Below are positions 7,582 to 51,799 of a DNA stretch of 64,000 nt, in pieces. The stretch lies in sequence record NC_048731.1; one strand, 5' to 3'. How positions within the stretch are numbered: the stretch's first letter is position 1; every line of letters begins with the position of its first letter. Under the pieces are notes generated by a model. That model was not told where the DNA came from, made no database searches, and saw nothing but the letters and a program-made list of their open reading frames with translations. The DNA is from Escherichia phage fp01. The translations under genes and the position numbers were made by a program.

Positions 7582-9400
7582 GACACTAAAATTTAGTAAC
7601 GTTATGTCTTACGGTAAGGACATCGTAATTCATTTCGATAAGAATCCAGTTACTCAACTAATTGGTGGCAATGGGCTAGGGAAATCCACTATTGCTACTG
7701 TTATTGAAGAATTGTTTTATAACAAGAACTCACGGGGTATTAAGAAGGACGCCCTGTTCTCTTGGTCTACTCCGAAAAAAGAGTATGATATGCACGCTTA
7801 CTTCTCGAAAGATGAAGATGAGTATGAATTGCATAAAGTAGTTAAATCAACTGCTAAAGTAACTCTTATTAAGAATGGAGAAGATATTAGTGGCCACACG
7901 GCAACTCAAACATACAAGATGATTGAAGAGATTATGGGTGGTGACTTCCAAACATTCACCAAACTAATTTATCAATCAGTGGGTTCCAATCTAGACTTTC
8001 TAAAAGCAACAGATGCAACACGTAAGGCTTTTCTTGTCAACTTGTTCAATCAAGAACAGTATAAAGAAATGTCAGAAACTATTAAGGCTGACCGTAAAGA
8101 AATAGCAAATACCTTAAATAATTTGCAGGGCCAAATGGCTGTAATTACGAAGATCCTTAATGGAAAGAATAATCTGGGAACTTTGCAGGAACCTGTAGAA
8201 GTACCGGAGTTTGATGAAGAGCCATTAGCACAAGAACTTACTGAATCGAAAATTAAGGCGGCATTAGCCAAGTCTCAAGAGGCTAATATTACTAAATTGC
8301 GTAATTTGGACAAAGCTGTACAAGTTGCCGAACAATCTTTCGAACCTTTCAAAAATTTGCCCGCGCCTACTGACCAAAACGAAGAGATCTCAAGTGTTAC
8401 GCGTGACCTAACGATTGTGACCTCACGTGCGGGAGAAGTTAAGAAACGTTATCAGAAGTTCAAGCAAGAGGCTTCAAATACTGAATGTCCTACTTGTGGT
8501 ACTCATCTGGATACAACTGCTGCTCAAAAAGCAATGGATATGGCTAGAATAGAATATGACCCTCTGTTCAAAGAGAAGCAATCTCTTGAAGCTAAGCTAG
8601 AACAGTTGAAGAAAGAACAACTTGAGTACGTTGCGTATACTAGAGCAAAGGATGCTTTGGATAAAGCAGTGGCAGCTAGAGACGAGTTCAAAAATTCAAT
8701 GAGTGACGCCTCTTTTGAAGAACTCAATGTGCAAAACCTACAGGTGCAAATCCGACAACTAGAACAGGAAATAGCTGATGGCCGTTCTAAGGTTGCAATT
8801 GCCAAAGAGCATAATGCAAATGTCGAATTAGCCAATGCAAAATATAAAGCGAAACTAGAACAGATTGAGAAAGCTGAGGCAGAAATGTCTGAGATTACTT
8901 CCAAACTGGATGAAGTATCAGAAGCTGTTTCTGATCTAGATATTCTGATTGCTGCATTGAAAAATCTGGTAGGGTATAAACTAGAACATAGCGTGAAAGT
9001 ATTTGAAGAGCTTATCAATAAATACCTTTCCATTATGACTGGCGGTAAGTTCGCACTTGGATTTGAACTTGATGAAACAAAATTACAAGTAGTAATCTTC
9101 AATGATGGAAACCGTACTAGTATGGAGAATTGCTCTACTGGTCAGCAAAGTCGAATCAACCTAGCAACTCTGTTAGCTATTCGAATGCTACTAACATCTA
9201 TTAGTAAAGTTAATATTAATCTTCTATTCCTTGATGAAGTAATTAGCTTTATTGATACGAAAGGACTTGACACCCTTGTTGAATTATTAAATGAGGAAGA
9301 AAGTCTAAATTCTATCATTGTTTCTCATGGGCATACGCATCCATTGGCCCATAAGATTACTGTCAAAAAAGATGCAGAAGGATTTTCCTACTTAGAATAA
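7562..9400 (+). CDS. Rad50/SbcC-like ATPase (T5 D12-like)
   Basis: Walker A 'GGNGLGKST', long coiled coil with zinc-hook-like 'CPTCG', ABC signature 'STGQQSRINLA', Walker B 'LLFLDEV'. Likely start is ATG at 7562 (MSKITIK), not 7481. Confidence 0.75.
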   Translation: MSKITIKTLKFSNVMSYGKDIVIHFDKNPVTQLIGGNGLGKSTIATVIEELFYNKNSRGIKKDALFSWSTPKKEYDMHAYFSKDEDEYELHKVVKSTAKVTLIKNGEDISGHTATQTYKMIEEIMGGDFQTFTKLIYQSVGSNLDFLKATDATRKAFLVNLFNQEQYKEMSETIKADRKEIANTLNNLQGQMAVITKILNGKNNLGTLQEPVEVPEFDEEPLAQELTESKIKAALAKSQEANITKLRNLDKAVQVAEQSFEPFKNLPAPTDQNEEISSVTRDLTIVTSRAGEVKKRYQKFKQEASNTECPTCGTHLDTTAAQKAMDMARIEYDPLFKEKQSLEAKLEQLKKEQLEYVAYTRAKDALDKAVAARDEFKNSMSDASFEELNVQNLQVQIRQLEQEIADGRSKVAIAKEHNANVELANAKYKAKLEQIEKAEAEMSEITSKLDEVSEAVSDLDILIAALKNLVGYKLEHSVKVFEELINKYLSIMTGGKFALGFELDETKLQVVIFNDGNRTSMENCSTGQQSRINLATLLAIRMLLTSISKVNINLLFLDEVISFIDTKGLDTLVELLNEEESLNSIIVSHGHTHPLAHKITVKKDAEGFSYLE

Positions 9401-9403
9401 AAC

Positions 9404-9886
9404 ATGGCTGTAGATAGTAGAGAGAAAGGTAAACGTGGTGAATATCAGGTAAGAGATATTCTACGTGAGCGTACAGGTCTTGAGTGGGAACGTGTTCCTG
9501 GCTCTGGTGCTTTTGGCCAGAGCCACGGACTAAAAGGTGACATCTACCTTCCACCACAAAGCGGACACATTAGTAGATACTGCTTCGAAGTTAAGTGGTA
9601 TAAAGATGATAATATATCAAGTAATTTATTTAATGTTGGTGAATCCACTCTAGAGAAGTGGTGGCAGCAGTGCTCACGTGAAGGTGAGCAAATGAACTCC
9701 AAACCTGCATTAATATTCAAAAAAGACAGAGGACAGTGGTTAATAGCTTTGGATAGCTCAGACCCGATGGTTGACAACTTAATGAGTCGTACCCATATGG
9801 TGTTAAATAAGAAAGACATGGAAATCGTAATTGGTTTATTTGAGCCGTGGCTACATCATGCATCTGTTGAGGACTTAATTAAATAA
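9404..9886 (+). CDS. hypothetical protein, possible PD-(D/E)xK-type nuclease
   Basis: Candidate 'GDIYL...FEVKWYK' D...ExK arrangement; placed between SbcC-like and flap endonuclease genes. Weak. Confidence 0.4.
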   Translation: MAVDSREKGKRGEYQVRDILRERTGLEWERVPGSGAFGQSHGLKGDIYLPPQSGHISRYCFEVKWYKDDNISSNLFNVGESTLEKWWQQCSREGEQMNSKPALIFKKDRGQWLIALDSSDPMVDNLMSRTHMVLNKKDMEIVIGLFEPWLHHASVEDLIK

Positions 9887-13750: not shown

Positions 13751-15654
13751 TTACCGTAAGCCATTAATTTGATCATTATTTAAAGCCCTATACCATACTC
13801 GGAAATTCTTAATATGATATACAAATTTAGAAGGGGTAGGAGATGGTGATGCACCTAACCTAGACGGAATACCTGTCAAACTCACGGGAGTACTAGTAGA
13901 TTTAGCAGTTTTACCATTAAAGAAATTACTAATCTCATTCCCTGTTATTTTTTGAGCATAGGTCATAGGAGGTAGACTTTCTATATCTGGAATAGCTAAG
14001 GTTGGCCCTGTACTAGATCTATATGTTCTTATAGTGGCATTATCAGCGCTATCACAGCGGCAGATAATGTCATACTTAGAACCTCTTACTTGCATAACTT
14101 CTACATAACTAGTATAAGGTCGTACTTTACAATTAAATTCAAAAGATACTGTGCGCTCAAAGTAGTCCGCCAGGGTTCTATAGCCGGCATTATCTGGTAT
14201 ACACCACCATTCATCTGCTGTTCTAGTAGTGGTGGTATCAGTGCTATTACGGATGTAAGAAGTTGGAGCTATGCCTTCCTCAACCTGTATACCCCAAATG
14301 TAGAAACCAGAAACACCATCCCCCTGGTAGACAGTAGTATTGGTATTTTTAGCCATCTGGAGTCTAAATATAGTGCTTCGACTTTCAGTGGCTGCAAAAG
14401 AAACCCAAATTCTATATATACCTCCAGTTAATCTCTCATACCCCCCTCTAATATTACTAGCAGAACCACTTGTAGCAACAGTTTCATTTTTAATATCAAA
14501 AAACATACCAACAGTTGTACCGGAAGCTACACGTAGATATACTAAACGGTTAGCGGTATCATCTTTAACATAAGCAGAATAGCAATAAAAAGTATCAGCA
14601 GTCAAAGATATCCATTTATCGTTGCAGTAATGCTCGCCGTCATTGGTATTCTCGGTAAACTTAGTCATCAACATTTCGCCAGTCGGGCACGCCGAAGCAT
14701 TAGGAGTTGTAATAACTAGACTACCTCCAGTAATTGCTTCTGAATTAGTATATAAATTAGTGCACTGAGACTCCATTAATAAACCTTGCTTTTCAAATCT
14801 AGGTTCATTAATATCTGCAAAACACATTTTACCACTTTTATCTATATAACTGGCGGTAGTTGAGCGAGTAAAATTTGCAGATTTTGTTGGCAATTCCAGA
14901 GTTACATCATTAATTGTTGCTAAATCGTAGGGGGCCATACCAGATAATAATCTCATATCATCAGTTAAAGGTACCCAAACATCCGGATAAGGGACAGGTT
15001 CATACATAATAATACTAGCAGCAGAAGCAGCGGCGGCAGCTTCAGAAGCTTTAGCATTAATTTCAGAAGCTTTAGCGTTAGTCTCTGAAGCTTTAGCATT
15101 AGTCTCAGAAGNNNNNNNNNNNNNNNNNNNNNNNNNNNNNNNNNNNNNNNNNTTTTACTTGCTAATGCATTAGTTTCGCTAGTAGCAGCATTAGTTTCCG
15201 AGGTTTTAGCTTTGGTTTCACTAGATTTTGCATTAGTTTCTGATGCTTTTGCATTAGTCTCGGATGTTTTAGCCTTAGTTTCACTAGCTTTCGCATTAGT
15301 CTCAGATACTTTAGCTGCTGCGGCTGATGCTGCAGATCTATCCGCTGATGCAGCAGATTGAGTAGCAGATGTAGCGGACTGAGTGGCAGAGGCTTCAGAA
15401 GCTCCAGCAGAAATAGCAGCTTCCTGTTCAGAATCCTTAGCATTAAGTTCTGAAGTCTTAGCAGCTATCTCAGAAGCTTTTGCAGCTGCAGCAGATTTAG
15501 CCGTAGCCTCAATAGAGGATACTAATTCACTTGCAGTAATAGAGCTAATAGAATTACCTAGAGTTACAGTATATCTAGGAAATTTACTAGCAGTAGCTTT
15601 AGTATCATCAATATTTAATATCTGTTGTACAATAATCTTAGTAGTTACTGCCAT
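13751..15654 (-). CDS. L-shaped tail fibre proximal protein (interrupted by assembly gap; true length unknown)
   Basis: Reading upstream of the Met at 15007 in the same frame stays open through the 21-nt repeats to the gap; beyond the gap the N-terminal part starts at 15654. Track ORFs 13751..15007 and 14965..15654 are therefore one gene. Confidence 0.55.
15040..15310 (-). repeat. tandem 21-nt repeats encoding 7-aa units (SETNAKA-like)
   Basis: At least 10 copies of 'GCATTAGT(C/T)TC(A/G)GA(A/T)GCTTTA'-like units on the plus strand, encoding 'ASETNAKASETKAKTSETNA...'. Confidence 0.8.
15112..15152. other. assembly gap (41 N)
   Basis: Run of n inside the tandem-repeat region; length is not a multiple of 3, so the downstream frame in the track is artefactual. 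Confidence 0.95.
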
Positions 15655-39322: not shown

Positions 39323-39436
39323 TTTGACTTTTGCCAAATTTCATAAGATTACACATGGAGGTGTGCCCAGTGGGTTGGGGGAGAATACTTAGTCTGCTAA
39401 CCGCCACCCCCGTTACTATTACCTTGCTAACTGTTT

Positions 39437-39486: not shown

Positions 39487-40221
39487 TTACGCAACTTTTA
39501 ATTTCTCAATATATTGTTGCGGGCTGCAACTATATTCTGCGCGTTCTTCCTCGGTCATACTTTCCCAACATAATTTCAAACGATCGGCTAGGAACTGATA
39601 ATCATTATCATCCTCGAGGGATTCATCAATAAAGGTTCCGCCTATCAATGCCACGCCGATTGATAGAATATCATTAACGGCTTGCGCATCTAGCGTTTTA
39701 AATCCATATGACGCAGCCGCTGATAATACACCTTTATGATCATCAATCATTGTAAAATCAGCGTTCGGATATAGCTGTTTAAATAATTCAAAGTAATAAC
39801 TTTTGTATACTGCGTCCTTGCTGTGGTATATCTCGCTAACCTTATCAGCCTCAAAATATTTATGCAGTGTATCGCGGGAAAATACACGGATATTACTATC
39901 ACCACGCCCGCGCAATCCTTGTTTGCGCAAATAATAATAATCCGACTTGCTCATCAGCCGAGCGGTGCAAATAATGTTTAAAGTATTTGAGTCATTCATA
40001 CATTGGCGCATATATTCCACCAAAGGTAATAAGGTGTCTTGCATTATTAAATCATGTTTACACGCTTCATTTTTATACTTATTTAAATTTAAATTCCCGT
40101 CGCTATCAAAGCAAGGCGCTACACGATGGAAAGAATTAATGATAGTGCCGTCCAGATCCCAAATCATGACGCGGGAAATATGCGGGAAATTACGGGAAAT
40201 ATTCATAATAGCTTTATTCAT
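39487..40221 (-). CDS. dmp: HAD-superfamily 5'-deoxyribonucleotidase (T5 Dmp-like)
   Basis: HAD motif I 'IWDLDGTI'; 244 aa; sits downstream of the A1-like gene in the GC-richer island. Confidence 0.6.
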   Translation of the reverse strand: MNKAIMNISRNFPHISRVMIWDLDGTIINSFHRVAPCFDSDGNLNLNKYKNEACKHDLIMQDTLLPLVEYMRQCMNDSNTLNIICTARLMSKSDYYYLRKQGLRGRGDSNIRVFSRDTLHKYFEADKVSEIYHSKDAVYKSYYFELFKQLYPNADFTMIDDHKGVLSAAASYGFKTLDAQAVNDILSIGVALIGGTFIDESLEDDNDYQFLADRLKLCWESMTEEERAEYSCSPQQYIEKLKVA

Positions 40222-40300
40222 TTGTTACGTTCTCCATTAAAGGGATGTAGTTTATCCAGCACTGCCCGCTATTTATAAGCGGGCAATAATAAATCAACTA

Positions 40301-40693
40301 TCAAAGACCATAAGCCAAAGCATCGGCGATAAAACTAATATCTTCGCCGGATATATGGGAACGAATACCCGCGCAGATATACACCTTTGCGCTTGATAGC
40401 TGATCATCAAAGCAAGCCGGACAAGGCGCGACAACTGCAAACGCAAGGCCAGCTTTCACGGCGTCAATGATAATCGTTTCTTGTTTCACCGTATCAACAT
40501 AAACGCCTGCGGCCTTGATGTAACTACTTGCGCGGCCTTGCGTATAGGCGAAAGTCGTGATCTGTAGCGCCTCATTAAATTCGATTAAATCATCAACAAC
40601 GTGACCGGCCTCAACGTGATACCGCTCACCATTAGAATAAACCAGAACGATTGAGGATTGAGCGCGATCGAATGGAATATTTTGCTTTTTCAT
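40301..40693 (-). CDS. hypothetical protein with HxE...PCxxC motif
   Basis: 'YHVEAGH' and 'APCPACF'; start 'MKKQNIPF' with leader 'TTAAATTAATTGGAGTTT'. Confidence 0.5.
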   Translation of the reverse strand: MKKQNIPFDRAQSSIVLVYSNGERYHVEAGHVVDDLIEFNEALQITTFAYTQGRASSYIKAAGVYVDTVKQETIIIDAVKAGLAFAVVAPCPACFDDQLSSAKVYICAGIRSHISGEDISFIADALAYGL

Positions 40694-40759
40694 ATTTATA
40701 AACTCCAATTAATTTAATAAGGGGCATAAGCTGGAAGTATTTCCAGCTTATAAATTTAA

Positions 40760-42424
40760 TTATGCGAAAAATTTGCCGTTTTTAAAGTCAATCAAAGTGC
40801 GTTGCCCGTTGGCGTATGTAATTAAATGCGTTTGCGTCCAGCTTGACGCGCCAACGTTGTAACCCATATCCAGACTACCAGCTACGCCAGCGGTATAAAC
40901 GCCGCCATAAATGCTAGCGGTGTGAGTGTGTCCGGTGTTTAACTTGCCCAATTTCTTAAACTGCTTAGGATTGCCACGGCTGCCGTTTATGCCGTTATGA
41001 CCGTGTACACCACACTCAATGCCTGCAATTTTGAATGATTGATCAGTCGTTAGGAAAATCGCGTTAAACTCGCAACCTGCGACGCTACGCAGCGCATAAT
41101 CTAGCACGTTGAAAGTATCGTCATGATTACCGATTGCCGCGTAAATTGCAGCATTAAGGCGGTGATATAGTTCCGCATTGGCTGGGTCGTCTTTAATGTT
41201 AGCATTACGATCATCAAGCCAACGAGATAGCGCCAAATCGTGATTCGATTCAACAATGATCGTTTGACTAAAATCACGCTCCATCGATTCCAGCACGCGC
41301 CCGGTATCGATAAGATCATCAATAACCTTATCCCGTCCGGCTGCATACTGTTTCGCTAGAAATACACCGGAAGCGCGGTTATGATGATTGCGCGATGTAA
41401 AATCATGCACGTCATGGATAAACTGATATTTAGGCTTGAGAATATCAAGCAAACTATTGTCGCCAGCCCATGACGCTGCGGCGCACTCCTCATCTAATTT
41501 TTCGGCGTGAATGTCACCATACTGTAAGCCTAAAACATGCCCCGATGTTTCATAGCATCCGGCGGGAGTAGCGCAAACATTCAGATCATAAAACACCCCG
41601 CTTTCATCCATTGTTTCAAGCTGGCGAACAAAAAATTCACCGTCCTCATCGAACTCGACAATCAGCGCACCAAAGTTATGAAGTGCTTCCGCTTTCTGTC
41701 CTGCTTTCTGCTGAATGTAGTTTTTGAGTGTTGCCGTTCCGGTTGAATACATGCGGCGCACCACTTCACCTTTTAAAGCTGGGACGCTTTCGGCGGTGAT
41801 TTTAGCGTGACCAATTGCCAGACCCTCGATATTTAAAGCCGTTGCAGTTTCTGCAAATCCAGAAAGCGGATAATCTGCGGTTGGCAAAACATTAATTTCA
41901 GCCATGAAAGCAAAACGGCGGTTATTTAAAAACACGTTTTTGCTGCAAATATACTTATCAAAAGCGGAATCATATTTGATTCCGTCAGCACCTTCCCCAT
42001 TTTGGAATCCGTTTTTATTATAAATATACTTAGAAACAAGCAAATCAGCGCCGATAAATTTGGCATATTGTTCAAGCGAGGACAAAAAGTTTTTATGCGG
42101 GAAAGTATTATTCTGAATCGATGTAATAATAAAGCGTTTGCCTTGTTTTACTTCCCACTGTTCCACGGTACTAGAAACAATTCCAGCCGCTTCGGGGCGC
42201 TCATCGTTTTTAATGGCTTTTACCGCTTTCGCCGCTTTCGGTTTAGCTGGTTTATTTGCTTCCAGCCAGTCGCAGATAGCGGTTGAATGTTTTGCAGTAT
42301 CGTAAACCGCTTTTGATATATCGTCGCAGACCTCCAATTTAGTAGCGCGCAGACGTTTACCATAGAAATTAAAGTCAGCGGCTAGTTTCAGGATAGCGGT
42401 TTGTTTTTCTGCGGAAAAAATCAT
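40760..42424 (-). CDS. A1: pre-early A1-like protein with metallophosphatase (Mre11-like) motifs
   Basis: ~554 aa from 'MIFSAEK'; 'GDIHAE', 'ESNHD', 'GHNGINGSRG', 'TGHTHTA' phosphoesterase motifs; size and position match T5 A1 as recalled. Confidence 0.65.
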   Translation of the reverse strand: MIFSAEKQTAILKLAADFNFYGKRLRATKLEVCDDISKAVYDTAKHSTAICDWLEANKPAKPKAAKAVKAIKNDERPEAAGIVSSTVEQWEVKQGKRFIITSIQNNTFPHKNFLSSLEQYAKFIGADLLVSKYIYNKNGFQNGEGADGIKYDSAFDKYICSKNVFLNNRRFAFMAEINVLPTADYPLSGFAETATALNIEGLAIGHAKITAESVPALKGEVVRRMYSTGTATLKNYIQQKAGQKAEALHNFGALIVEFDEDGEFFVRQLETMDESGVFYDLNVCATPAGCYETSGHVLGLQYGDIHAEKLDEECAAASWAGDNSLLDILKPKYQFIHDVHDFTSRNHHNRASGVFLAKQYAAGRDKVIDDLIDTGRVLESMERDFSQTIIVESNHDLALSRWLDDRNANIKDDPANAELYHRLNAAIYAAIGNHDDTFNVLDYALRSVAGCEFNAIFLTTDQSFKIAGIECGVHGHNGINGSRGNPKQFKKLGKLNTGHTHTASIYGGVYTAGVAGSLDMGYNVGASSWTQTHLITYANGQRTLIDFKNGKFFA

Positions 42425-42518
42425 AGTAATAAACTCCATTAAAGGGATAAAAAACGTTTGTTATTGGCAATATTGCCAGATATAACGCCTTGAATAATAG
42501 GCGTTATAATTTGCAACA

Positions 42519-42716
42519 TTAATTTAAAGGCATAAGGCTAGAACTAACACCACAAACAACGGCGGCAATAAAACAAATCAGACCTAAACGCTTCGCTAAC
42601 TTAGATTTGCGTTTAAAATAATACGAATCTAAGTCATTTTGAAAATATGCGAACAATAACGAGGCCGCCATAATAAATAGTCCTAGAATCAGCGATTCAG
42701 TAGGGTAAAAGATCAT
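42519..42716 (-). CDS. small two-TM membrane protein (65 aa)
   Basis: 'MIFYPTESLILGLFIMAASLLFAYF...LICFIAAVVCGV'; leader 'CCCTTTAACTGGAG'. Confidence 0.4.
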   Translation of the reverse strand: MIFYPTESLILGLFIMAASLLFAYFQNDLDSYYFKRKSKLAKRLGLICFIAAVVCGVSSSLMPLN

Positions 42717-42745
42717 TTTAATAACTCCAGTTAAAGGGAAATTAT

Positions 42746-42765
42746 AGTGGGGAATAATCCCCACT
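42746..42765. promoter_or_regulatory. perfect inverted repeat between A2-like and small membrane genes
   Basis: 'AGTGGGGA-ATAA-TCCCCACT'. Confidence 0.35.
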
Positions 42766-42773
42766 AGTTAAAT

Positions 42774-43181
42774 TTATTCACCTGCGGCCTGTTTTACTTC
42801 ATCGGCAACGCCTAACAACTGCGCCACGGCGTCCAGCGTTTCCAGTTTCGCGCTTTCAAGGCTTGCCAGATCATCGGCGTCTTTGATAATGCCGGAATCA
42901 ATAGCGTGTTTTGCAATTACTCGCACATAATGAGCCTTGCGGATTGAACTGCCGCCGCCAACTTTGCGCGGCTTATCGCTTTTTTGATAGGCTTTCGCGC
43001 TGGTCAATTTTGAGCGAACGGATACGGGAGAAGTCGCGCCCACTGCCTTTGCAATCTCTTTCAGGCCGTCGCTATTTGCAAATTCTAAACCGTTTTCGTT
43101 GATTAACTGCTGATACAGGGTAACAGCTTTTTGGGTGTTGTCTTCATTCCAAGTGAATTTTGCGGTTTTTGCGTTAGTCAT
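42774..43181 (-). CDS. hypothetical pre-early protein (A2-sized, possibly DNA-binding)
   Basis: 135 aa, Lys/Ala-rich; upstream of the A1-like gene in the same operon; leader 'TTAAATTAATTGGAGTTT'. Identity with T5 A2 is a guess from order and size. Confidence 0.3.
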   Translation of the reverse strand: MTNAKTAKFTWNEDNTQKAVTLYQQLINENGLEFANSDGLKEIAKAVGATSPVSVRSKLTSAKAYQKSDKPRKVGGGSSIRKAHYVRVIAKHAIDSGIIKDADDLASLESAKLETLDAVAQLLGVADEVKQAAGE

Positions 43182-44121: not shown

Positions 44122-44583
44122 ATCGTCGATTCCTTATAATGAATAAGTTTACCGCCGATAGGCTTTTAAGATATACCCAATTTTTAAAGAGCGCGGCGGT
44201 AAACTCCCCGCCGTGTAGTTCGTCATTGCCGCCCTACGAGATAAATAATAACAAACAACGAAAAAGGCGCAACCTTATATTTGTAAAGAAATGTAAAGAC
44301 AAAATCCACCGGACACCGTGCGGCGATCTGGGCGCGACGGCCTAAAATTAAAAGAAACGGGCGCGCGAATACCACAAAACACAGCAGATAAGCAAGTAAT
44401 TTTTTCATTTATATTTGCTTTGCCCTACTTGACAAAATCTAAAAAGCTCGTGGCGACGATAAACGACGTGGCCCCTTATGATTGGATGGCTAAAAACTTT
44501 ACTGCGTTCTGGGGCGTTTCAGGCCGCTTATTTTCGACTTAACAAATCATTAACAAACGCAAAATTGAAAAATAGTTGGAAAA

Positions 44584-44609
44584 GGTCTTGACTTTTAAAA
44601 ATCAAGACC
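44584..44609 (-). terminator. hairpin downstream of HNH gene
   Basis: 'GGTCTTGA-(10 nt)-TCAAGACC'. Confidence 0.4.
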
Positions 44610-44633
44610 AAATGACTTAATTTATTAAATTAA

Positions 44634-45152
44634 TTAATTGACAATTCCAAATTCAGCTTTTTTAGTTTCAAGCCATAATAATAACTCTTGTAAATCATAA
44701 CCTGACTTACTAACACGCTTGTTAGTAATAGGATTCTTAATTTGAGCAGTCAAATAGTCACGCCCGTAACTATCACGGGGGCGAACTTTATTAACGTAAA
44801 TGTTTTTAGGGATACCATTAGCACGCTTACAGTTTTCATACTCACTAGGAGTACGATTATAATTATTCTGCGAACTATCAACCGCGCGAAGATTCCAGAT
44901 GTTATTATTACGAGTGTTACGATCGATATGATCAATCATTAGCTCGCTATCTATACCGCCATTCATTATACAAAAGATAATTCTATGTACTTTTAACTGT
45001 CCCATGCCTAATAGTTCAACTTGCCAATAATTACCATTTAAACCACCTGCGACGGCGTGATCTTCCCGCCAACGTAAAAATGATAACGCTGTTTCATCAT
45101 AATAAAAGTAACTATTAAAAAGATCATAATCTATATCTTTATATTTACCCAT
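44634..45152 (-). CDS. HNH homing endonuclease
   Basis: 'IDHIDRNTRNNNIWNLRAV' HNH motif; gene is markedly AT-richer than its GC-richer surroundings. Confidence 0.65.
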   Translation of the reverse strand: MGKYKDIDYDLFNSYFYYDETALSFLRWREDHAVAGGLNGNYWQVELLGMGQLKVHRIIFCIMNGGIDSELMIDHIDRNTRNNNIWNLRAVDSSQNNYNRTPSEYENCKRANGIPKNIYVNKVRPRDSYGRDYLTAQIKNPITNKRVSKSGYDLQELLLWLETKKAEFGIVN

Positions 45153-45717
45153 TGTTATAGTTTCCTTATGTTATTAATTTAATCTCTATTATATTATATC
45201 AAAACAATTAGCAGACTAGCTAATGAGTTTTTCAGGTTTAATTAGCAGACTCATAATCACTCTAAAAACCTATTAGCCAACTAACTATATTTTATTATAT
45301 AATAACTGTATAAATTAGTTAGTGAGAACCACTATCATTTAAGTTACCCACAGCCTTATACATTTTGTAAAATAATTTGACACAATAGGCGGCGATATGA
45401 GGGCTTTTACACAGACTTATCCACAGGTTATTCCACTGTATAAATATACAGGGTAAAAAGGTAGTGTTAACAACTGCAATCAATTTTAAGCGGCCTAAAA
45501 CGCTTTCTAACGAGCTAAACGCTGCGGGGTAGTATTAAAGTAAAGCCTTCACCCGTCGGCCTGGTGGCTTCGCCGTGTCTTGCTCTTTACTACACCGCTG
45601 CGCGGTTAGCATAAAACTAGGTGTTAGGCAAGGAAAATAAAAAAGTAAAATAATCTTTGCCTATGCTAGAAAATTACCCTTATCATTCACTCACCGATTA
45701 ACGAGGGAGGCCAACAA

Positions 45718-46704
45718 ATGCGGCTATATAAACCAGATAACGCAACCGTCTTAAAAGGTGCGCTGCGTAACCTGCTGGACGGTAGCAGAACAACCAGCAT
45801 TAAACATTTTGTTTTCAATATTGAAACTATTCATCAAAACTTTTTTGATGATTATGATGCTTACAATATGAATAGTTTTCTACCGTTATATAAGCAAGGG
45901 GCAACGCTTGTTTTATATAATCAGGATTATCAATTACTTACTAGTAGGGGGCCGGATACTGATTTCATAGTCGTAAAAGGCAACACAGTAAAAGCCTATG
46001 ATACTGGGGCGGGCTTAGAAGTTTTTTCAATAGAAAACTATGAAGCCAATGATAATGATCTTTATGACGTAGAAAATTTTCTTGATTCATTTTGGCGTTA
46101 TTTATCAGTTGGCTGGAATCGGTCGGATTCTGATGGGTATCGTTTTGCGGCTATAATGGCCTTTGATGATAACGGTAATTTTTTGCTACCGTCGGAGTTA
46201 TATAATCGGGTATATGAAGGCGATATTGTTGACGCCGGATTTTCTTTCGAAAGGGAAGAAAGTATTGACAGTATAGAAAAACATGCTGTAAATTCTAACA
46301 CTAAAAGCGTTCACACTCAAACTACTGAAAACAAAGGAAAAAATGCCATGACCAAGATCGCTAACATCGTTGCCGCCAATAAGTCTGCCGTTGTAAACGC
46401 TGCAAAACTGGAAGCGGGTAAAATTGCACTGACTCAAATTACGAAAGTAGCGGCTAAAAAAGCACCGTTCATGATCAAAGGCTATATTGATACGCCGATT
46501 GGTCGTGTAGTGATCGCTAACCTGCTGAGTGTAGCGGTTGACCAGTACGCCCCGAGTAACCAGAAAGCGAAAGCGGTAGCAGGGGCGGCTATGGAAGCGG
46601 CGATGTTGGAAATGGTGCAAAGTTTTAACATCGCTGAGATGATTGATGAAATGGTAAAAGGTATCGATATTTCTACTTTCACCACTAACACCGAAAGCGA
46701 GTAA
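45718..46704 (+). CDS. hypothetical protein, acidic N-terminal half and Ala/Lys-rich C-terminal half
   Basis: 328 aa; RBS 'GAGGGAGG'; first gene of a tightly packed plus-strand operon. Confidence 0.6.
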   Translation: MRLYKPDNATVLKGALRNLLDGSRTTSIKHFVFNIETIHQNFFDDYDAYNMNSFLPLYKQGATLVLYNQDYQLLTSRGPDTDFIVVKGNTVKAYDTGAGLEVFSIENYEANDNDLYDVENFLDSFWRYLSVGWNRSDSDGYRFAAIMAFDDNGNFLLPSELYNRVYEGDIVDAGFSFEREESIDSIEKHAVNSNTKSVHTQTTENKGKNAMTKIANIVAANKSAVVNAAKLEAGKIALTQITKVAAKKAPFMIKGYIDTPIGRVVIANLLSVAVDQYAPSNQKAKAVAGAAMEAAMLEMVQSFNIAEMIDEMVKGIDISTFTTNTESE

Positions 46705-46768
46705 TAATAACTAGCGGGGTAACAATCCCCGCTTTACTATTCCCTTGTTAATTAATAGGAGGCTAATT

Positions 46769-47086
46769 ATGCAGCTTAACAAAAAAATGCTAGAACAATT
46801 GCGGGGTAGAATCCAGCGCGATGACTACCCTCACATTAATTATTCTTCGGAAGTAGTAGACACTGCCGATTCATGGAAAAAAGCAGGTTACCCCTATGTA
46901 TGGCAACATGCAGAAAGCGCAAACGGATTCCATGCCTTTCGTGATTTAGGTCATGGAAAACTTTGCGTTTTTAAAGGTGAGTTATTAATAGGAGTATCAG
47001 AATCGGAAGTAATCACGGATGAGGTTGTATTCTTAGACAATGACCAATATGAAACAGGCAATCAGTTTTATTTTCCCGCTAATTAA
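46769..47086 (+). CDS. hypothetical protein (105 aa)
   Basis: Start 'MQLNKKM' preceded by 'TTAATTAATAGGAGGCTAATT'. Confidence 0.55.
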   Translation: MQLNKKMLEQLRGRIQRDDYPHINYSSEVVDTADSWKKAGYPYVWQHAESANGFHAFRDLGHGKLCVFKGELLIGVSESEVITDEVVFLDNDQYETGNQFYFPAN

Positions 47087-47100
47087 TAGGAGGCTAATTA

Positions 47101-47595
47101 ATGGCTGAAGAAAAATATGGCTTCTCACTGGGAGAAGTGAGCACGGCAAAACATGATATGATCATTTTAGTCGATTGTCATACTGGCTATTGCGGGGAAG
47201 GGAATACCGAGGAATATTTTGTTCCTGCTGGTACGGATCTAGACGCTTTCGCTCAGGAAATGGCTATTGATAATGCTTCTCGTTTTGGTAGCGATGGCTA
47301 TGAAGACGAGGAAACTGGCGAATGGTATGAAAATGAAAACGTATATGCGAGCCTTTATCATTATCAATTAAGTAAATCCGGCACATATGTAAACGGCGGC
47401 GATCCTATTAATTCCGTCATGAAATTAATTATTAAACACGGTGGCGTCGAGATAATTGATAACAAAGCGGTAATATATGCAAACCGATTAAAACAGCTTG
47501 TTTATATCCCTGATAGTACCCGATGGGATGAATACGCCGTTTTGCATGACGAATTGAAACGATGTTTCAATGTTGAAGCCTTACAAGTAGTCTAA
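47101..47595 (+). CDS. hypothetical acidic protein (164 aa)
   Basis: Preceded by the same 'TTAATTAATAGGAGGCTAATTA' cassette; Asp/Glu/Tyr-rich. Confidence 0.6.
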   Translation: MAEEKYGFSLGEVSTAKHDMIILVDCHTGYCGEGNTEEYFVPAGTDLDAFAQEMAIDNASRFGSDGYEDEETGEWYENENVYASLYHYQLSKSGTYVNGGDPINSVMKLIIKHGGVEIIDNKAVIYANRLKQLVYIPDSTRWDEYAVLHDELKRCFNVEALQVV

Positions 47596-47701
47596 TGTAA
47601 AGTTTTGTAAAGGTCGCCTTTTATGGTGGCCTTTTTTGCTATAATGCCTTTACACCGTTTGAGGACGGTTGAAAATTTTCCCAAAAATTTGGAGGCTTAA
47701 A

Positions 47702-47932
47702 ATGGTTGCTTATTCTTCTTCTGACGCTCTTTTCACTGGGAAAGGCTGGGTATCTAATCGCTGGATTATTCAAGAAATGGTGCAAGAATACGGCATTGCT
47801 AAAACTTACACTACCATTCAGGCGCTTTATGATAATGATCAAATCGATCAGCAAACGGCGGGCTTTTTGCTGGATACCCTGAAAGCGGAACACTGTACCA
47901 AAAAACAAGCGGCAAAAATTGTTTTAATGTAA
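47702..47932 (+). CDS. hypothetical protein (76 aa)
   Basis: ATG at 47702 with 'GGAGG' RBS; preceded by a 'TATAAT' element at 47639-47644. Confidence 0.45.
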   Translation: MVAYSSSDALFTGKGWVSNRWIIQEMVQEYGIAKTYTTIQALYDNDQIDQQTAGFLLDTLKAEHCTKKQAAKIVLM

Positions 47933-47981
47933 TTAATAACGGGGCGTTACTTTCGCCCCACTAACTAGGGGAGTAGTACAA

Positions 47982-48164
47982 ATGGTTATTTTTCGAGCTG
48001 TTCTAGCAGGTATCTTGGGCGCTATTTTGACCCTTTTCGCCACCGCGTATGGTATTCAGGATTCCTATTGCGGTTTGGTAAATACAAAACCAATGGTTAC
48101 TATTGGCGCTGGCATTGCTGTATTTTCTTATCTGCTAGGCTGCATGACTAGTAAAGGAGAATAA
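47982..48164 (+). CDS. small membrane protein (60 aa, two TM)
   Basis: Hydrophobic 'VIFRAVLAGILGAILTLFATAYG' and 'TIGAGIAVFSYLLGC'. Confidence 0.45.
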   Translation: MVIFRAVLAGILGAILTLFATAYGIQDSYCGLVNTKPMVTIGAGIAVFSYLLGCMTSKGE

Positions 48165-48166
48165 AA

Positions 48167-48379
48167 ATGATCCGCAACGTTTCTCTTGCACGTTCGAAAG
48201 GCTTTAAGCTGGTGGATGCTAACACGTTCGAGCGTCTTGATTGTAAAATCGAATATGTAGCACGTAACAAAAATGCCTTTCGTGTTACCGAGAAAAAATT
48301 TGACAAGCGCGGCAACGTGATCGCTGAAACGGTTAAACACTTTGCCACCTTTTACGCTGCGTTTCGTGGGGTGTTATAA
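48167..48379 (+). CDS. hypothetical basic protein (70 aa)
   Basis: 'AAGGAG' RBS; coupled to neighbours. Confidence 0.45.
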   Translation: MIRNVSLARSKGFKLVDANTFERLDCKIEYVARNKNAFRVTEKKFDKRGNVIAETVKHFATFYAAFRGVL

Positions 48380-48380
48380 A

Positions 48381-48725
48381 ATGGTTATTTATGAAGGCAA
48401 TCGTTTTGTTGCTAATTGCCGCCCGGCATTGTTAGCAAACTATTTAAATCAGCTTTCGCCAGCTTATAAGGGCGTTATTAATATTTATGAGGGCAAGGCA
48501 CATTATAAAATTAATGCGGTCGTTGCCCGTGAACTAGCATTTCAATTTTTGACCTTTGCATCTTGTGACGTTCAAGTTATGGGTGAAGCATTAATTGCGG
48601 AAAATGAAGAGGATTTTATTAATATTTTCCGCAAGGTATGCACCGAGCGCCTGATAATGAAAGGCGCGTATATTCAATCCACTGCGGATAGTATTGAAAC
48701 AGCGTTTCGAAAGGTGGCACAATGA
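48381..48725 (+). CDS. hypothetical protein (114 aa)
   Basis: ATG at 48381 directly after upstream stop. Confidence 0.5.
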   Translation: MVIYEGNRFVANCRPALLANYLNQLSPAYKGVINIYEGKAHYKINAVVARELAFQFLTFASCDVQVMGEALIAENEEDFINIFRKVCTERLIMKGAYIQSTADSIETAFRKVAQ

Positions 48726-48880
48726 AAAAGTTTTTAATAGCTGGCATGTTTCCTTTGTTGCCTTATGTAATTTGCTGGGCTTTATATGCTCATGGTGCTA
48801 GTGTTCCCGGTGTGGCTGCATTTGGTGTATCAGCGGGCTTTCTAGCCGGACTACTAGCAAGCGTATATTTACGCAAGTAA
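48722..48880 (+). CDS. small membrane protein (52 aa)
   Basis: 'MKKFLIAGMFPLLPYVICWALYAHGASVPGVAAFGVSAGFLAGLLASVYLRK'; ATGA overlap with previous gene. Confidence 0.4.
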   Translation: MKKFLIAGMFPLLPYVICWALYAHGASVPGVAAFGVSAGFLAGLLASVYLRK

Positions 48881-48899
48881 TTAACAACGGAGCGTTATT

Positions 48900-49094
48900 A
48901 TGAGCAATAAAATTATTGTAACCAAAACCAGCACAACGGTTGATGTTTTTTACGTGCCCGATACGCCGGAAAACCGACAAGCGGTCGAGCGTGGGGAATA
49001 TGATAAAGTGATTTATGATCACGATGGTTATTATCAGTATTTGGTGGATTCATATGGGGAGGAGGAAAAGATCACGCACCGACTACCGGACTAA
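48900..49094 (+). CDS. hypothetical acidic protein (64 aa)
   Basis: Last ORF before the repeat landscape. Confidence 0.45.
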   Translation: MSNKIIVTKTSTTVDVFYVPDTPENRQAVERGEYDKVIYDHDGYYQYLVDSYGEEEKITHRLPD

Positions 49095-49133
49095 TAATCA
49101 CGGGGCGCAACTATCAGGAAGTGCCCCCAATTC

Positions 49134-49158
49134 TCAAATGAGAATGATTCTCATTTGA
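49134..49158. repeat. perfect 25-nt palindrome
   Basis: 'TCAAATGAGAAT-G-ATTCTCATTTGA'; motif 'AAATGAGAATGATTCT' recurs at ~49650 and ~49700. Confidence 0.85.
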
Positions 49159-49360
49159 CCGCGCCCGCGATGGTTAGCCTGCTAATGGTTAGGGTGTTAC
49201 GTGTCGCCTTGTGTGATCGTTAGCGAGCTAACTAATTTTCAAGCCTCCTCCAATTTTGCCCTTGTTTTAGTATCCCCACCAAAATTAAACGCGTTAGAAT
49301 GCGTTTGAGGGCGTTTTAGCGGTATATTAGAATTATTCACTGCGTAGGAATACTGTATAT

Positions 49361-49460
49361 TTATCCAGTAGGATAAGCTGTGGATAAGTCTGTTGATAAC
49401 GCTTCAAAACGGCTAGGATTTTGTCAAGTCAAATCGTGCTGTTGATAAGTCTGGGGATAA
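49361..49460. promoter_or_regulatory. cluster of DnaA-box-like 9-mers
   Basis: 'TGTGGATAA' (perfect complement of TTATCCACA) plus 'TGTTGATAA' x2, 'TGGGGATAA', 'TTATCCAGT' within ~100 bp. Confidence 0.6.
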
Positions 49461-49485
49461 CTTAAATAATAGTGTTTCTCACTTC

Positions 49486-49740
49486 CGTTCTTAAATGCGA
49501 ATCATTATCATTTGCATTCCACTTCCTGAATAAGAATCATTCCACTATCTAAACGATAATCATTCCACTTCCTGAATAATAATCATTCCACTATCTAAAT
49601 AAGAATCATTCCACTATCTAAACGATAATCATTCCACTTTTTAAATGAGATTGATTCTCATTCCACTTTCTAAATGCGAATTATTATCATTCGCATTCCG
49701 CTTTTTAAATGAGAATGATTCTTATTATCATTCGTATTTA
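49486..49740. repeat. tandem iteron-like ~23-bp repeats
   Basis: About 8 head-to-tail units of 'CATTCCACT(A/T)(T/C)CT(A/G)AA(T/C)(A/G)A(T/G)AAT' with variants. Confidence 0.8.
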
Positions 49741-49762
49741 GCGCAGAGCAATTGCTCTGCGC
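49741..49762. repeat. perfect 22-nt palindrome followed by T-run
   Basis: 'GCGCAGAGCA-ATT-GCTCTGCGC' then 'TTTTGTG'; could act as a terminator or protein site. Confidence 0.8.
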
Positions 49763-49765
49763 TTT

Positions 49766-50369
49766 TGTGCAAAACCGACATTGCTCCACGGGTGTTACGT
49801 GCGGGCGTATGTGCAAATCCGACAGGATTTTTGGTAGTGTGCAAATCCGACCCGAAAAATTTTTATAGTGTGCGAATCCGACAATGAATTTTTCCAAAAA
49901 CTCCAGCAATCCGATGCTGCGCATCAATCCTGTGGAATTAACTAGAATATGTGCAAATCCGACATGAGTTTATTTGTGCGAATCCGACAAGATTTTTGTG
50001 ACTTCGATTGGAGGGTGTGTGATTGTGTGGGTTTGGGGAGAAGTTGAGAGAGCGAGGGAAAATTAGGGGAGAAGCTAGAGAGGCGCATGTTTGGTGCGGG
50101 GGCACCCGATTTGCGGGGATTTTGGGGAAGAGTTGAGAAGATTTGGGTTAATTTGAGATTAGTGGAGATAAAGTAAAATTTTATTAGCTAAATGGGGCAA
50201 AATAGCTTGACAAGTGAAAATTCTTGTGGCTCTAAAAACTCAGGCAATCATGGGCCTTCGGCCCGAAATAATGCTGCCATTTTCAAGAGATTATGTGTCC
50301 ATGAAAACTTAGGCAATTGTGCAAATCCGACCATAAATTTCTAGAAACACAATGTGCAAATCCGACAGT
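49766..50369 (+). repeat. eight dispersed direct copies of a 14-nt motif
   Basis: 'GTGC(A/G)AA(A/T)CCGAC(A/C)' at ~49767, 49811, 49840, 49871, 49950, 49977, 50320, 50353, all on the same strand. Confidence 0.8.
50000..50200 (+). repeat. purine-rich G-tract region with 3 copies of 'GGGGAGAAG(T/C)TGAGAG'-like unit
   Basis: Strong G+A skew on plus strand; G-runs 'GGG','GGGG','GGGGG' spaced by short linkers. Confidence 0.7.
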
Positions 50370-50914
50370 AAAATCCAGAAATGTGTTTTCAAAAAATGTT
50401 GTCTAGAAATAACCGCCCTCCCCATAACCGCCCTGTATTAAACCGCCTAGTATATGTTCCTAGAAACTTAGGAGAACCGCCCACTAGAAGTGTGATATCT
50501 CGTGAGTATTTCGTGAGAACTCTGGAGTTTCTAGGAAAGTGTTGTGCCATCCTAGCAGATGAGCGGCAACAGGTGTATCATCTTGAATGTAAATTATGTG
50601 GTCAAAAGTTTTACTTTTATTTTAAATATAAGATCCCCCAGGGTTCTCATATAGAGCTTTGCCCCCGCCAGAAGGTCTCGTGATGTTTCTAGCAATTTAT
50701 ATTAAATTACTTATTAACTTGTCCTGTCGCTCCGTATCCTCCGCTACAAGTTAGTAATTTTAAATTACTGAACCACCACACCTTCTGTGTGGCAACTCTA
50801 AATGGTTAATTCTATTAACTCATAGAGTTATGATAACATACATTTAGCTATCTGTCAACGAGAGTTTGTATTTGAGTCTCGGTACAGGTATTGTGCACCG
50901 AGACTTGCAGGATC

Positions 50915-51799
50915 TTACAGTAACTCTTGGTATGCTTTTTGATACGCCTCAGTGTCCGTAGGTGTACCTTTTGCAATGGCTATTAATTCATCTGTAATCT
51001 GAATATTCGTATTATAACGTGAGTGGAACTCGTCAGGAATTTCTAGATACCTATTGATGAATGCTGCAGCAAGCGGTGAAGCTACACCCATTTCTAGAAC
51101 CCATCCAACATGGTTTTCAAATTTCAGATAAGGAGAATCAGATGGGATTGGTGGGGTTACATCAATTTTCTCTGGTTCTTTTTCTGGAAGCAACGGATTA
51201 TTATATAATGCTTCATCTGGAAGCACAGATTTACGCTCTTTAAATATATAAGTTTCTAGATCAGATGCTTTAGATCCTGAGTATACAGCAAAGATGCTAG
51301 CTTTACCTTGTGATGCTCTAACTGGTAGATAACTAGTAGGATAGCTTCTTAATGCATCATGGAATGGACTTCCTGAATATTTGTACGTATCCCCATAGAG
51401 ATCGTCAATATTCATTCGTTCATCTTCAAAAATGTGAAATGACTTAAATGGTGGAATGGTGAAGTATTCCATCTGTAATCCATAAACTAAGAAACGATGT
51501 GCATATGCACTGATTTTTAAGACTGTGAATGCTTTTTCACCTTCTTTATGGGCATTGCCCTTTGAAGTAACTGGGTAACGTTTACAAAACATCTCTACTA
51601 GACGTTTCTCATTAAGACTAAGGGTGGAGTACAGTCGTCCACTTAACCCTATAAGTGCATCGAACATAAATGCTAGTTTATCTTTTTCTTCTTGGGTTAG
51701 TTCAGGAAACGGAAGTACTTTAGCATTAGGAACACTATTATTCTCCTTTGCCTTTACTTTGCCAGCATTTTGTCTTAGTTTATCTTTAAAGTTATACAT
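50915..51799 (-). CDS. hypothetical early protein (294 aa)
   Basis: Long ORF, first gene of the minus-strand early block after the repeat region. Confidence 0.55.
   Translation of the reverse strand: MYNFKDKLRQNAGKVKAKENNSVPNAKVLPFPELTQEEKDKLAFMFDALIGLSGRLYSTLSLNEKRLVEMFCKRYPVTSKGNAHKEGEKAFTVLKISAYAHRFLVYGLQMEYFTIPPFKSFHIFEDERMNIDDLYGDTYKYSGSPFHDALRSYPTSYLPVRASQGKASIFAVYSGSKASDLETYIFKERKSVLPDEALYNNPLLPEKEPEKIDVTPPIPSDSPYLKFENHVGWVLEMGVASPLAAAFINRYLEIPDEFHSRYNTNIQITDELIAIAKGTPTDTEAYQKAYQELL

Follow-up and report, generated by a model that had tools for sequence, protein, structure and literature searches.

Transfer of the bacteriophage T5 genome stops after 8% of the DNA, a question since the 1960s for which DnaA boxes provide the sole sequence-based hypothesis. 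The stop occurs without protein synthesis, FhuA proteoliposomes release the whole T5 genome in vitro, and the products of A1 and A2 are needed for transfer to resume (Davison, bioRxiv 10.1101/866236). According to Davison, the DnaA boxes of the injection stop signal (iss), TTATCCACA, TTATCAACA (twice) and TTATCCCCA, were first noted in 1987 (Heusterspreute, cited in Davison, bioRxiv 10.1101/866236). Davison described eight DnaA boxes, paired 3 bp apart, across 25 T5-like phages, and proposed that membrane-bound DnaA on these boxes halts injection, a block that A1 and A2 relieve by cutting the DNA free (bioRxiv 10.1101/866236). A 2023 paper stated that experimental studies of the DnaA stop idea were lacking, and a 2026 PNAS paper still termed the idea proposed. 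Our literature search returned no report testing T5 on dnaA mutants, nor any experimental report of DnaA or LexA binding, or of genetics, for iss DNA.

An earlier note on the DNA analyzed here had pointed to a cluster of five DnaA-box-like 9-mers and had suggested, among other roles, a roadblock during the injection pause, which is Davison's published hypothesis. The DnaA-box cluster itself is thus already known; the additions made by our analysis are its deep conservation and an adjacent LexA box.

The cluster lies in the injection stop signal

The window, a 64,000-nt stretch of Escherichia phage fp01 (NC_048731.1), comes from a T5-like phage (Tequintavirus). It matches Salmonella phage L6jm (Tequintavirus) colinearly over the latter's first 19.5 kb, at ~90% nucleotide identity, the left genome end lies near window position 39378, and the A1 product is 97.5% identical to its counterpart in Salmonella phage Th1. 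The features that place the cluster are as follows.

39487-40221: dmp, pre-early gene
40760-42439, minus strand: A1, pre-early gene
42774-43181, minus strand: A2, pre-early gene
45321..45453, minus strand: inverted partner module, corresponding to T5 IRC-spacer-IRD of Repeat Region 2
45718..49094, plus strand: rightward pre-early operon (ORFs; colinear with ORF10-18 of phage L6jm)
49351..49483, plus strand: whole module, corresponding to T5 palindrome D plus IRD'-spacer-IRC' (about 9330-9462 of AY587007)

In this genome with dmp, A1 and A2, the cluster occupies the non-coding inner end of the terminal repeat, 3' of the rightward pre-early operon. The region aligns with T5 positions 9319-9699, inside the iss and IRD'/IRC' annotations, with 86% identity across 450 nt around the module, and the module is 88-97% identical in 40 close relatives. 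The T5 counterpart of the cluster is contained in the NC_005859 feature "injection stop signal (iss)" and is annotated in AY587007 as palindrome D, inverted repeat D', direct repeat B copies 1 and 2, and inverted repeat C'. By alignment, the DnaA-box cluster is the IRD'-spacer-IRC' element of a T5-type injection stop signal. The earlier note had spoken of an injection pause, and a T5-like, two-step-injection layout is supported by the dmp, A1 and A2 genes at 39487-43181 together with the match of the cluster to the annotated iss. The element ends roughly 155 bp short of the T5 shear point, which is at about 9618 (Davison, bioRxiv 10.1101/866236).

Two further features of the window were observed. 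An HNH-endonuclease-like ORF lies at 44634-45152, between Repeat Regions 1 and 2, where an HNH-type insertion is confined to a few relatives, namely T5, Shivani and FFH1 (Davison, bioRxiv 10.1101/866236). In the late-gene part of the window, 41 consecutive N (bases masked or unresolved) occupy 15112-15152.

Four DnaA boxes in two phased pairs

The 9-mers and the conserved sequences between and beside them are listed here in order of position.

49361-49369, plus strand: 9-mer TTATCCAGT, 2 mismatches to TTATCCACA
49379..49387, minus strand: DnaA box A, plus-strand letters TGTGGATAA, reading TTATCCACA; 0 mismatches; 10 nt from the 16-nt LexA core
49391..49399, minus strand: DnaA box B, plus-strand letters TGTTGATAA, reading TTATCAACA; 1 mismatch, at position 6; 3 nt from box A
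49400..49439, no strand: spacer with conserved motif GTCAAGTCAAAT (conservation profile of 66 unique modules)
49440..49448, minus strand: DnaA box C, plus-strand letters TGTTGATAA, reading TTATCAACA; 1 mismatch
49452..49460, minus strand: DnaA box D, plus-strand letters TGGGGATAA, reading TTATCCCCA; 1 mismatch
49469..49483, no strand: conserved flank motif ATAGTGTTTCTCACT, adjoining the outermost DnaA box; also at 3265-3283 of locus L006

The earlier note's count of one perfect 9-mer with one- and two-mismatch variants in ~100 bp was reproduced (0, 1, 1, 1 and 2 mismatches), and all five 9-mers lie where it had placed them. Four of the five are recognized DnaA boxes, and as such candidate binding sites; the fifth, at 49361-49369, is a LexA half-site and not a DnaA box (see below). 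Boxes A-D form two same-strand pairs with 3 nt between members, all within 82 bp (49379-49460). Boxes B, C and D deviate at position 6 or 7 and fall outside the Schaper-Messer consensus TT(A/T)TNCACA, as given by Davison (bioRxiv 10.1101/866236). The position of box D is occupied by a perfect TTATCCACA in T5 and most relatives.

Boxes with at most one mismatch number 20 in the whole window versus 19.4 expected, and perfect boxes number 2 versus 0.72 expected, both of the latter falling either in the element or in its inverted partner (45417). The clustering, not the window-wide count, carries the signal. When the largest cluster per 100 bp was scored in 1000 first-order Markov sequences of 64 kb each, none reached four boxes with at most one mismatch (the maximum was three, in 6 runs), and a Poisson estimate gives the cluster a family-wise probability of ~4e-5. 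Because each box pair belongs to one copy of an internal direct repeat of 24 nt (family D10; 49377-49400, 49438-49461), the four boxes are not independent events, and the cluster is best regarded as a built structure.

A LexA-box-like palindrome adjoins each DnaA cluster

The 9-mer at 49361-49369 is the right half of a palindrome and was therefore rejected as a DnaA box. It departs from the DnaA box twice, both times in the CACA end, and most relatives have TTATACAGT at this position, with 3 mismatches to the DnaA box. The palindrome and the corresponding sites of the partner module are the following.

49351..49370, no strand: LexA/SOS-box-like palindrome TACTGTATATTTATCCAGTA, which includes the 9-mer 49361-49369
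45344, 45405 and 45417, plus strand: partner-module boxes TTACCCACA, TTTTACACA and TTATCCACA, respectively
45434-45453: partner-module LexA box, with a perfect CTGT-N8-ACAG core

Compared with the 20-nt SOS-box consensus TACTGTATATATATACAGTA, TACTGTATATTTATCCAGTA has 2 mismatches, and a match within 3 mismatches was found in 0 of 100 shuffles. The palindrome at 49351-49370, with CCAG in one arm, has a heterology index of 2.1, the best in the 64 kb, and the perfect core at 45434-45453 has the second best (5.6), compared to a lowest value of 6.3 and a mean of 11.0 in 100 simulations; these indices, from a matrix of E. coli SOS boxes, are approximate. Both sites have the features by which we recognize a LexA box, namely the CTGT-N8-ACAG palindrome, an AT-rich center and a score like that of known boxes. 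The two best LexA-like sites in 64 kb thus each adjoin one DnaA cluster. Most relatives have a perfect CTGT-N8-ACAG core, reading CTGTATATTTATACAG, and the T5 sequence at this position is TACTGTATAAATATACAGTA. Neither the promoter scan of the window nor the T5 annotation places a LexA-like site over a repressed promoter.

The T5 records (AY587007 and NC_005859) annotate the LexA site only as "palindrome D," and Davison's preprint (bioRxiv 10.1101/866236) treats palindrome D as a plain palindrome, with neither "LexA" nor "SOS" in its text. A full-text search combining LexA with T5-family terms returned nothing relevant, the T5 papers of 1987, 2005 and 2015 lying outside its range. The LexA box beside the iss DnaA boxes has probably, though not certainly, not been reported before.

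The two modules are 3.9 kb apart and inverted, and they flank the rightward pre-early operon (45718-49094) with their LexA boxes on the inner side. The ACA end of every DnaA box points toward the LexA box; across the lineages compared below, the gaps from the 16-nt LexA core to the DnaA boxes are 9–11, 21–23, 70–74 and 83 nt. Within a box pair the starts are 12 nt apart here and 11–13 nt apart among relatives, approximately one helical turn.

The layout outlasts detectable DNA homology

To compare the element among relatives, we anchored the comparison on the A1 protein rather than on the DNA element, using nine annotated phage regions and 80 IMG/VR loci, with 33 loci as controls in which a truncated A1-like gene is all that is shared. 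Every Demerecviridae-type locus with enough upstream DNA contains 2–6 perfect TTATCCACA boxes versus 0.1–0.2 expected, which lie in two stereotyped places in opposite orientations. Conservation of the boxes in related phages, whose absence the earlier note had taken as grounds for abandoning its reading, is thus borne out. In five distant lineages pooled (Proteus, Providencia, two Vibrio groups and Aeromonas; A1 31–46% identical to that of the window), 21 perfect boxes were found versus 0.89 expected (Poisson 7e-22), while the 33 control loci contain 6 versus 6.0 expected and lack the LexA-DnaA layout. The palindrome CTGT-N8-ACAG likewise occurs 1.07–1.20 times per 10 kb in Demerecviridae loci, nearly always 22–35 nt from a DnaA box (center to center), versus 0.10 in controls (~10-fold).

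The 131-bp element is conserved whole among close relatives, spacer included, and blastn finds it in the Klebsiella and Erwinia lineages. By the same method the element is not alignable in Proteus, Providencia, Vibrio and Aeromonas phages, indicating that in these lineages the boxes are kept as a motif and not as inherited flanking sequence. When 66 unique modules were aligned, the consensus at all four box positions was a perfect TGTGGATAA; which box is perfect varies by phage, being A here and D in T5. The gap series of 9–11, 21–23, 70–74 and 83 nt is kept in Markadamsvirinae, Sugarlandvirus, Erwinia phage KEY, and Proteus, Providencia and Vibrio Thalassavirus phages. In the Proteus, Providencia and Thalassavirus phages the order is LexA core, 9–11 nt, box, 2–4 nt, box, with a third box at 70–74 nt. 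In the other Vibrio lineage and the Aeromonas phage, a LexA box lies near the DnaA boxes with looser spacing and mixed orientation. These comparisons show that in most lineages the predicted layout is conserved across Demerecviridae beyond detectable DNA homology, and that the module is a composite of consensus-like motifs for two pre-existing host proteins, LexA and DnaA, at fixed distances.

An IMG/VR scan for the composite pattern returned 79 stretches, mostly T5-like; A1 is present in four further metagenomic contigs, three of which also have dmp and A2. A LexA box directly abuts two DnaA boxes in metagenomic contigs L145 (4243-4330), L100, L102, L107, L117, L118, L121, L147 and L153, and A1, A2 and dmp were all absent from the examined stretches of these nine. 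In L145, three more box-like sites lie just upstream of a small-terminase-subunit-like ORF and a LexA-type winged-helix-like ORF. Contigs of this type may represent a second phage group that uses paired LexA and DnaA host sites.

Sequence around the module

Outside the module, the remainder of the iss repeat region contains several families of repeats and palindromes.

49484..49996, no strand: rest of the iss repeat region, with Fur-box-like palindromes, tandem repeats, the palindrome J homologue and GTGCAAATCCGAC repeats
49515-49652: five tandem 23-nt repeats (CATTCCACT..TAAA..AAT)
49740-49763: homologue of T5 palindrome J with its major nick site
49757-49996: GTGCAAATCCGAC motif, ~7 copies, corresponding to T5 "direct repeat D"

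Approximately 75 bp of the 23-nt array are missing from T5, which suggests that the array expands and contracts between relatives. In Proteus phages the flank motif that adjoins the outermost box is a perfect palindrome, GATAGTGAGAAACACTATC. Fur-box-like palindromes occur in the iss region at 49134-49158, 49491-49515 and 49676-49729, as well as at 770-788 of locus L004; one example, GAGAATGATTCTTATTATC, has 3 mismatches from GATAATGATAATCATTATC. Fur-like sites with at most 5 mismatches number 18 in the window versus 4.65 expected, and those with at most 4 mismatches number 3 per 497 kb in the controls. A Klebsiella phage has a Fur-like site with only 2 mismatches, whereas such sites are absent from the Vibrio phages and are not near the module in Providencia phages. 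Given this distribution and the AT-rich, repetitive nature of the motif, Fur boxes at iss are a weak lead. Outside iss, the strongest Fur-like matches (3 mismatches), at 39591-39615, lie inside the dmp coding sequence and are probably a coding coincidence, as this stretch would encode the acidic run DDNDY.

An Rfam scan of 44500-51000 gave no known RNA family, and neither A1 nor A2 has a Pfam match. Promoter and terminator predictions in 44900-50900 did not exceed background, and none put the boxes within a promoter. We also considered an oriC-like origin and rejected it, finding none of its AT-rich 13-mers, GATC cluster or IHF site beside the boxes: GATC is absent from 49300-50000 (versus 3.2 per kb window-wide), and neither a 13-mer unwinding-element match nor an IHF core adjoins them.

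A proposed host-protein clamp and its rivals

The DnaA motif of divergent phages is identical to the host DnaA box, and two unrelated motifs have stayed fixed on host consensus while the phage proteins diverged to ~31% identity. Both observations point to host proteins as ligands, and together they strongly suggest that the module is bound by host DnaA, and probably by LexA, rather than by phage proteins. Host-protein binding becomes much more credible where motifs and geometry are conserved and other DNA similarity is lost. That bound DnaA and LexA would also form a clamp that takes part in the injection pause is suggested only weakly, and we put the likelihood of this explanation as a whole a little short of even. 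Since no new protein has to be made for the pause, which is not seen in vitro with the receptor alone, a sequence-specific stop acting from the cytoplasmic side would have to use pre-existing host proteins. DnaA (largely membrane-associated) and LexA would load onto the module once the rear end of the first-step DNA comes through, and the bulky complex near the membrane could hold this DNA in place until A1 and A2 bring about its release or a bypass of the complex. By our estimate, a 10–20 nm length of DNA that spans the distance from the channel exit to a membrane-anchored complex would withstand roughly 5–20 pN before buckling, so that such a clamp is not physically absurd.

Several considerations weaken the clamp. 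A complex on DNA that has already entered would need anchoring near the channel exit to stop further push; three of the four boxes are off the Schaper-Messer consensus; and the upstream copy of the module enters first yet does not stop transfer, giving no more than a minor band near 5.8 kb (Davison, bioRxiv 10.1101/866236). Since the spacer is conserved too, the boxes may be no more important than other ligands or DNA structure. As for release, T5 plates and grows on recA strains; this, if it holds, excludes cleavage of LexA through RecA as the signal. A restart timer in which host-DNA degradation leads through RecA to LexA cleavage was likewise discarded, because A2 mutants degrade host DNA but do not resume transfer (Davison, bioRxiv 10.1101/866236).

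The conserved sites could instead act on transcription, the bound modules insulating or regulating the rightward pre-early operon, either as roadblocks that prevent RNA polymerase from transcribing into, and pulling on, DNA not yet out of the channel, or by coupling pre-early expression to the SOS and replication state of the host. The arrangement lends itself to this, as the modules flank the operon with LexA boxes inward and, in T5, the upstream module is flanked by P3 and P4, which are divergent promoters, and the downstream module comes after the operon terminators; moreover, Schaefer and Messer reportedly found that box-bound DnaA can block a transcribing polymerase. The E. coli uvrB promoter region has been described as combining LexA and DnaA sites (PMC6015884). 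We nonetheless consider a transcriptional role unlikely: the T5 sites are 110–300 nt from annotated promoters without overlapping them, the promoter and terminator signal of the window does not rise above background, and such a role would explain neither the fixed geometry nor why the element lies just inside the shear point. A role of the terminal repeats in replication or recombination, as an origin-like site or a synapsis or circularization site joining the left and right repeats, appears more doubtful. Phased DnaA boxes that adjoin an AT-rich iteron-like array (the five 23-nt tandem repeats, 30% GC) resemble plasmid origins, two modules are present in each terminal repeat, and circles minus one repeat are seen during T5 replication (Davison, bioRxiv 10.1101/866236). 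Yet the array is partly missing from T5, the GATC, unwinding and IHF elements named above are all lacking, and T5 origins have been mapped near the genome center, the replication genes being silent in the first-step period (Davison, bioRxiv 10.1101/866236).

The likeness to host sites might also be incidental, if a phage or virion protein such as A2 reads the motifs or if palindromes and cruciforms jam in the tail. A2 is said to bind DNA as a dimer and to associate with both A1 and the membrane (Davison, bioRxiv 10.1101/866236), the region is rich in palindromes and repeats, and conservation extends to the spacer and flanks. The specificity of a phage protein would be expected to drift, and two unrelated motifs that stay on host consensus despite 31–46% A1 identity and unalignable flanks therefore count against a phage ligand. 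With a stop that requires no new protein synthesis and an A2 that matches no Pfam family, we regard this explanation as distinctly improbable. Titration of DnaA by the boxes, which would shut down host replication initiation and which the earlier note had also raised, seems scarcely credible. Clustered boxes are loosely like the DnaA-titrating locus datA. A phage genome carries merely 4–8 boxes, however, titration would not account for the fixed LexA-DnaA geometry or for the existence of two inverted copies, and host DNA is degraded within minutes of infection (Davison, bioRxiv 10.1101/866236).

Returning to the clamp of host proteins, we offer more tentatively, and with real doubt, the broader proposal that the T5 iss could be a family-wide landing pad for LexA and DnaA at fixed spacing, perhaps with Fur on the nearby palindromes, and so a ready-made clamp. 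Proteins of the host would suit this purpose because no phage protein exists yet when the DNA arrives. As lexA is dispensable in sulA mutants while dnaA is essential, the LexA box gives the simpler genetic test of a host-protein clamp. If the LexA part is true and functional, the pause or the timing of pre-early expression should change in SOS-induced or lexA(Def) cells.

Comparison with known systems

The T5 iss is homologous DNA at the same position, the inner end of the terminal repeat, and it has the same four boxes, described there as DnaA and DnaA* boxes, in two pairs with a 3-nt gap; its Repeat Region 2 likewise contains the inverted partner. It differs in that the perfect box is D in T5 and A here, and in the ~75 extra bp of 23-nt repeats downstream of the module in the window. 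The DnaA-oligomerization region of E. coli oriC is alike in having direct-orientation boxes approximately one helical turn apart, a strong box usually being paired with a weaker one. Gaps between boxes are 2 nt in oriC arrays versus 3 nt here, and the phage element lacks the 13-mers, GATC cluster and IHF core of oriC.

Precedents for the LexA component come from two sources. The E. coli uvrB promoter region (PMC6015884) provides a chromosomal precedent for LexA and DnaA sites in one control region; the uvrB sites overlap promoters and regulate a gene, whereas the iss sites lie off the annotated T5 promoters and form a fixed-geometry module in two inverted copies. Mobile elements and temperate phages with LexA boxes, such as GIL01 (PMC4551915), resemble the present case in that a phage genome carries host LexA sites. 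In those cases, LexA controls a lysis-lysogeny promoter, whereas T5-like phages are strictly lytic and their LexA box lies outside known promoters.
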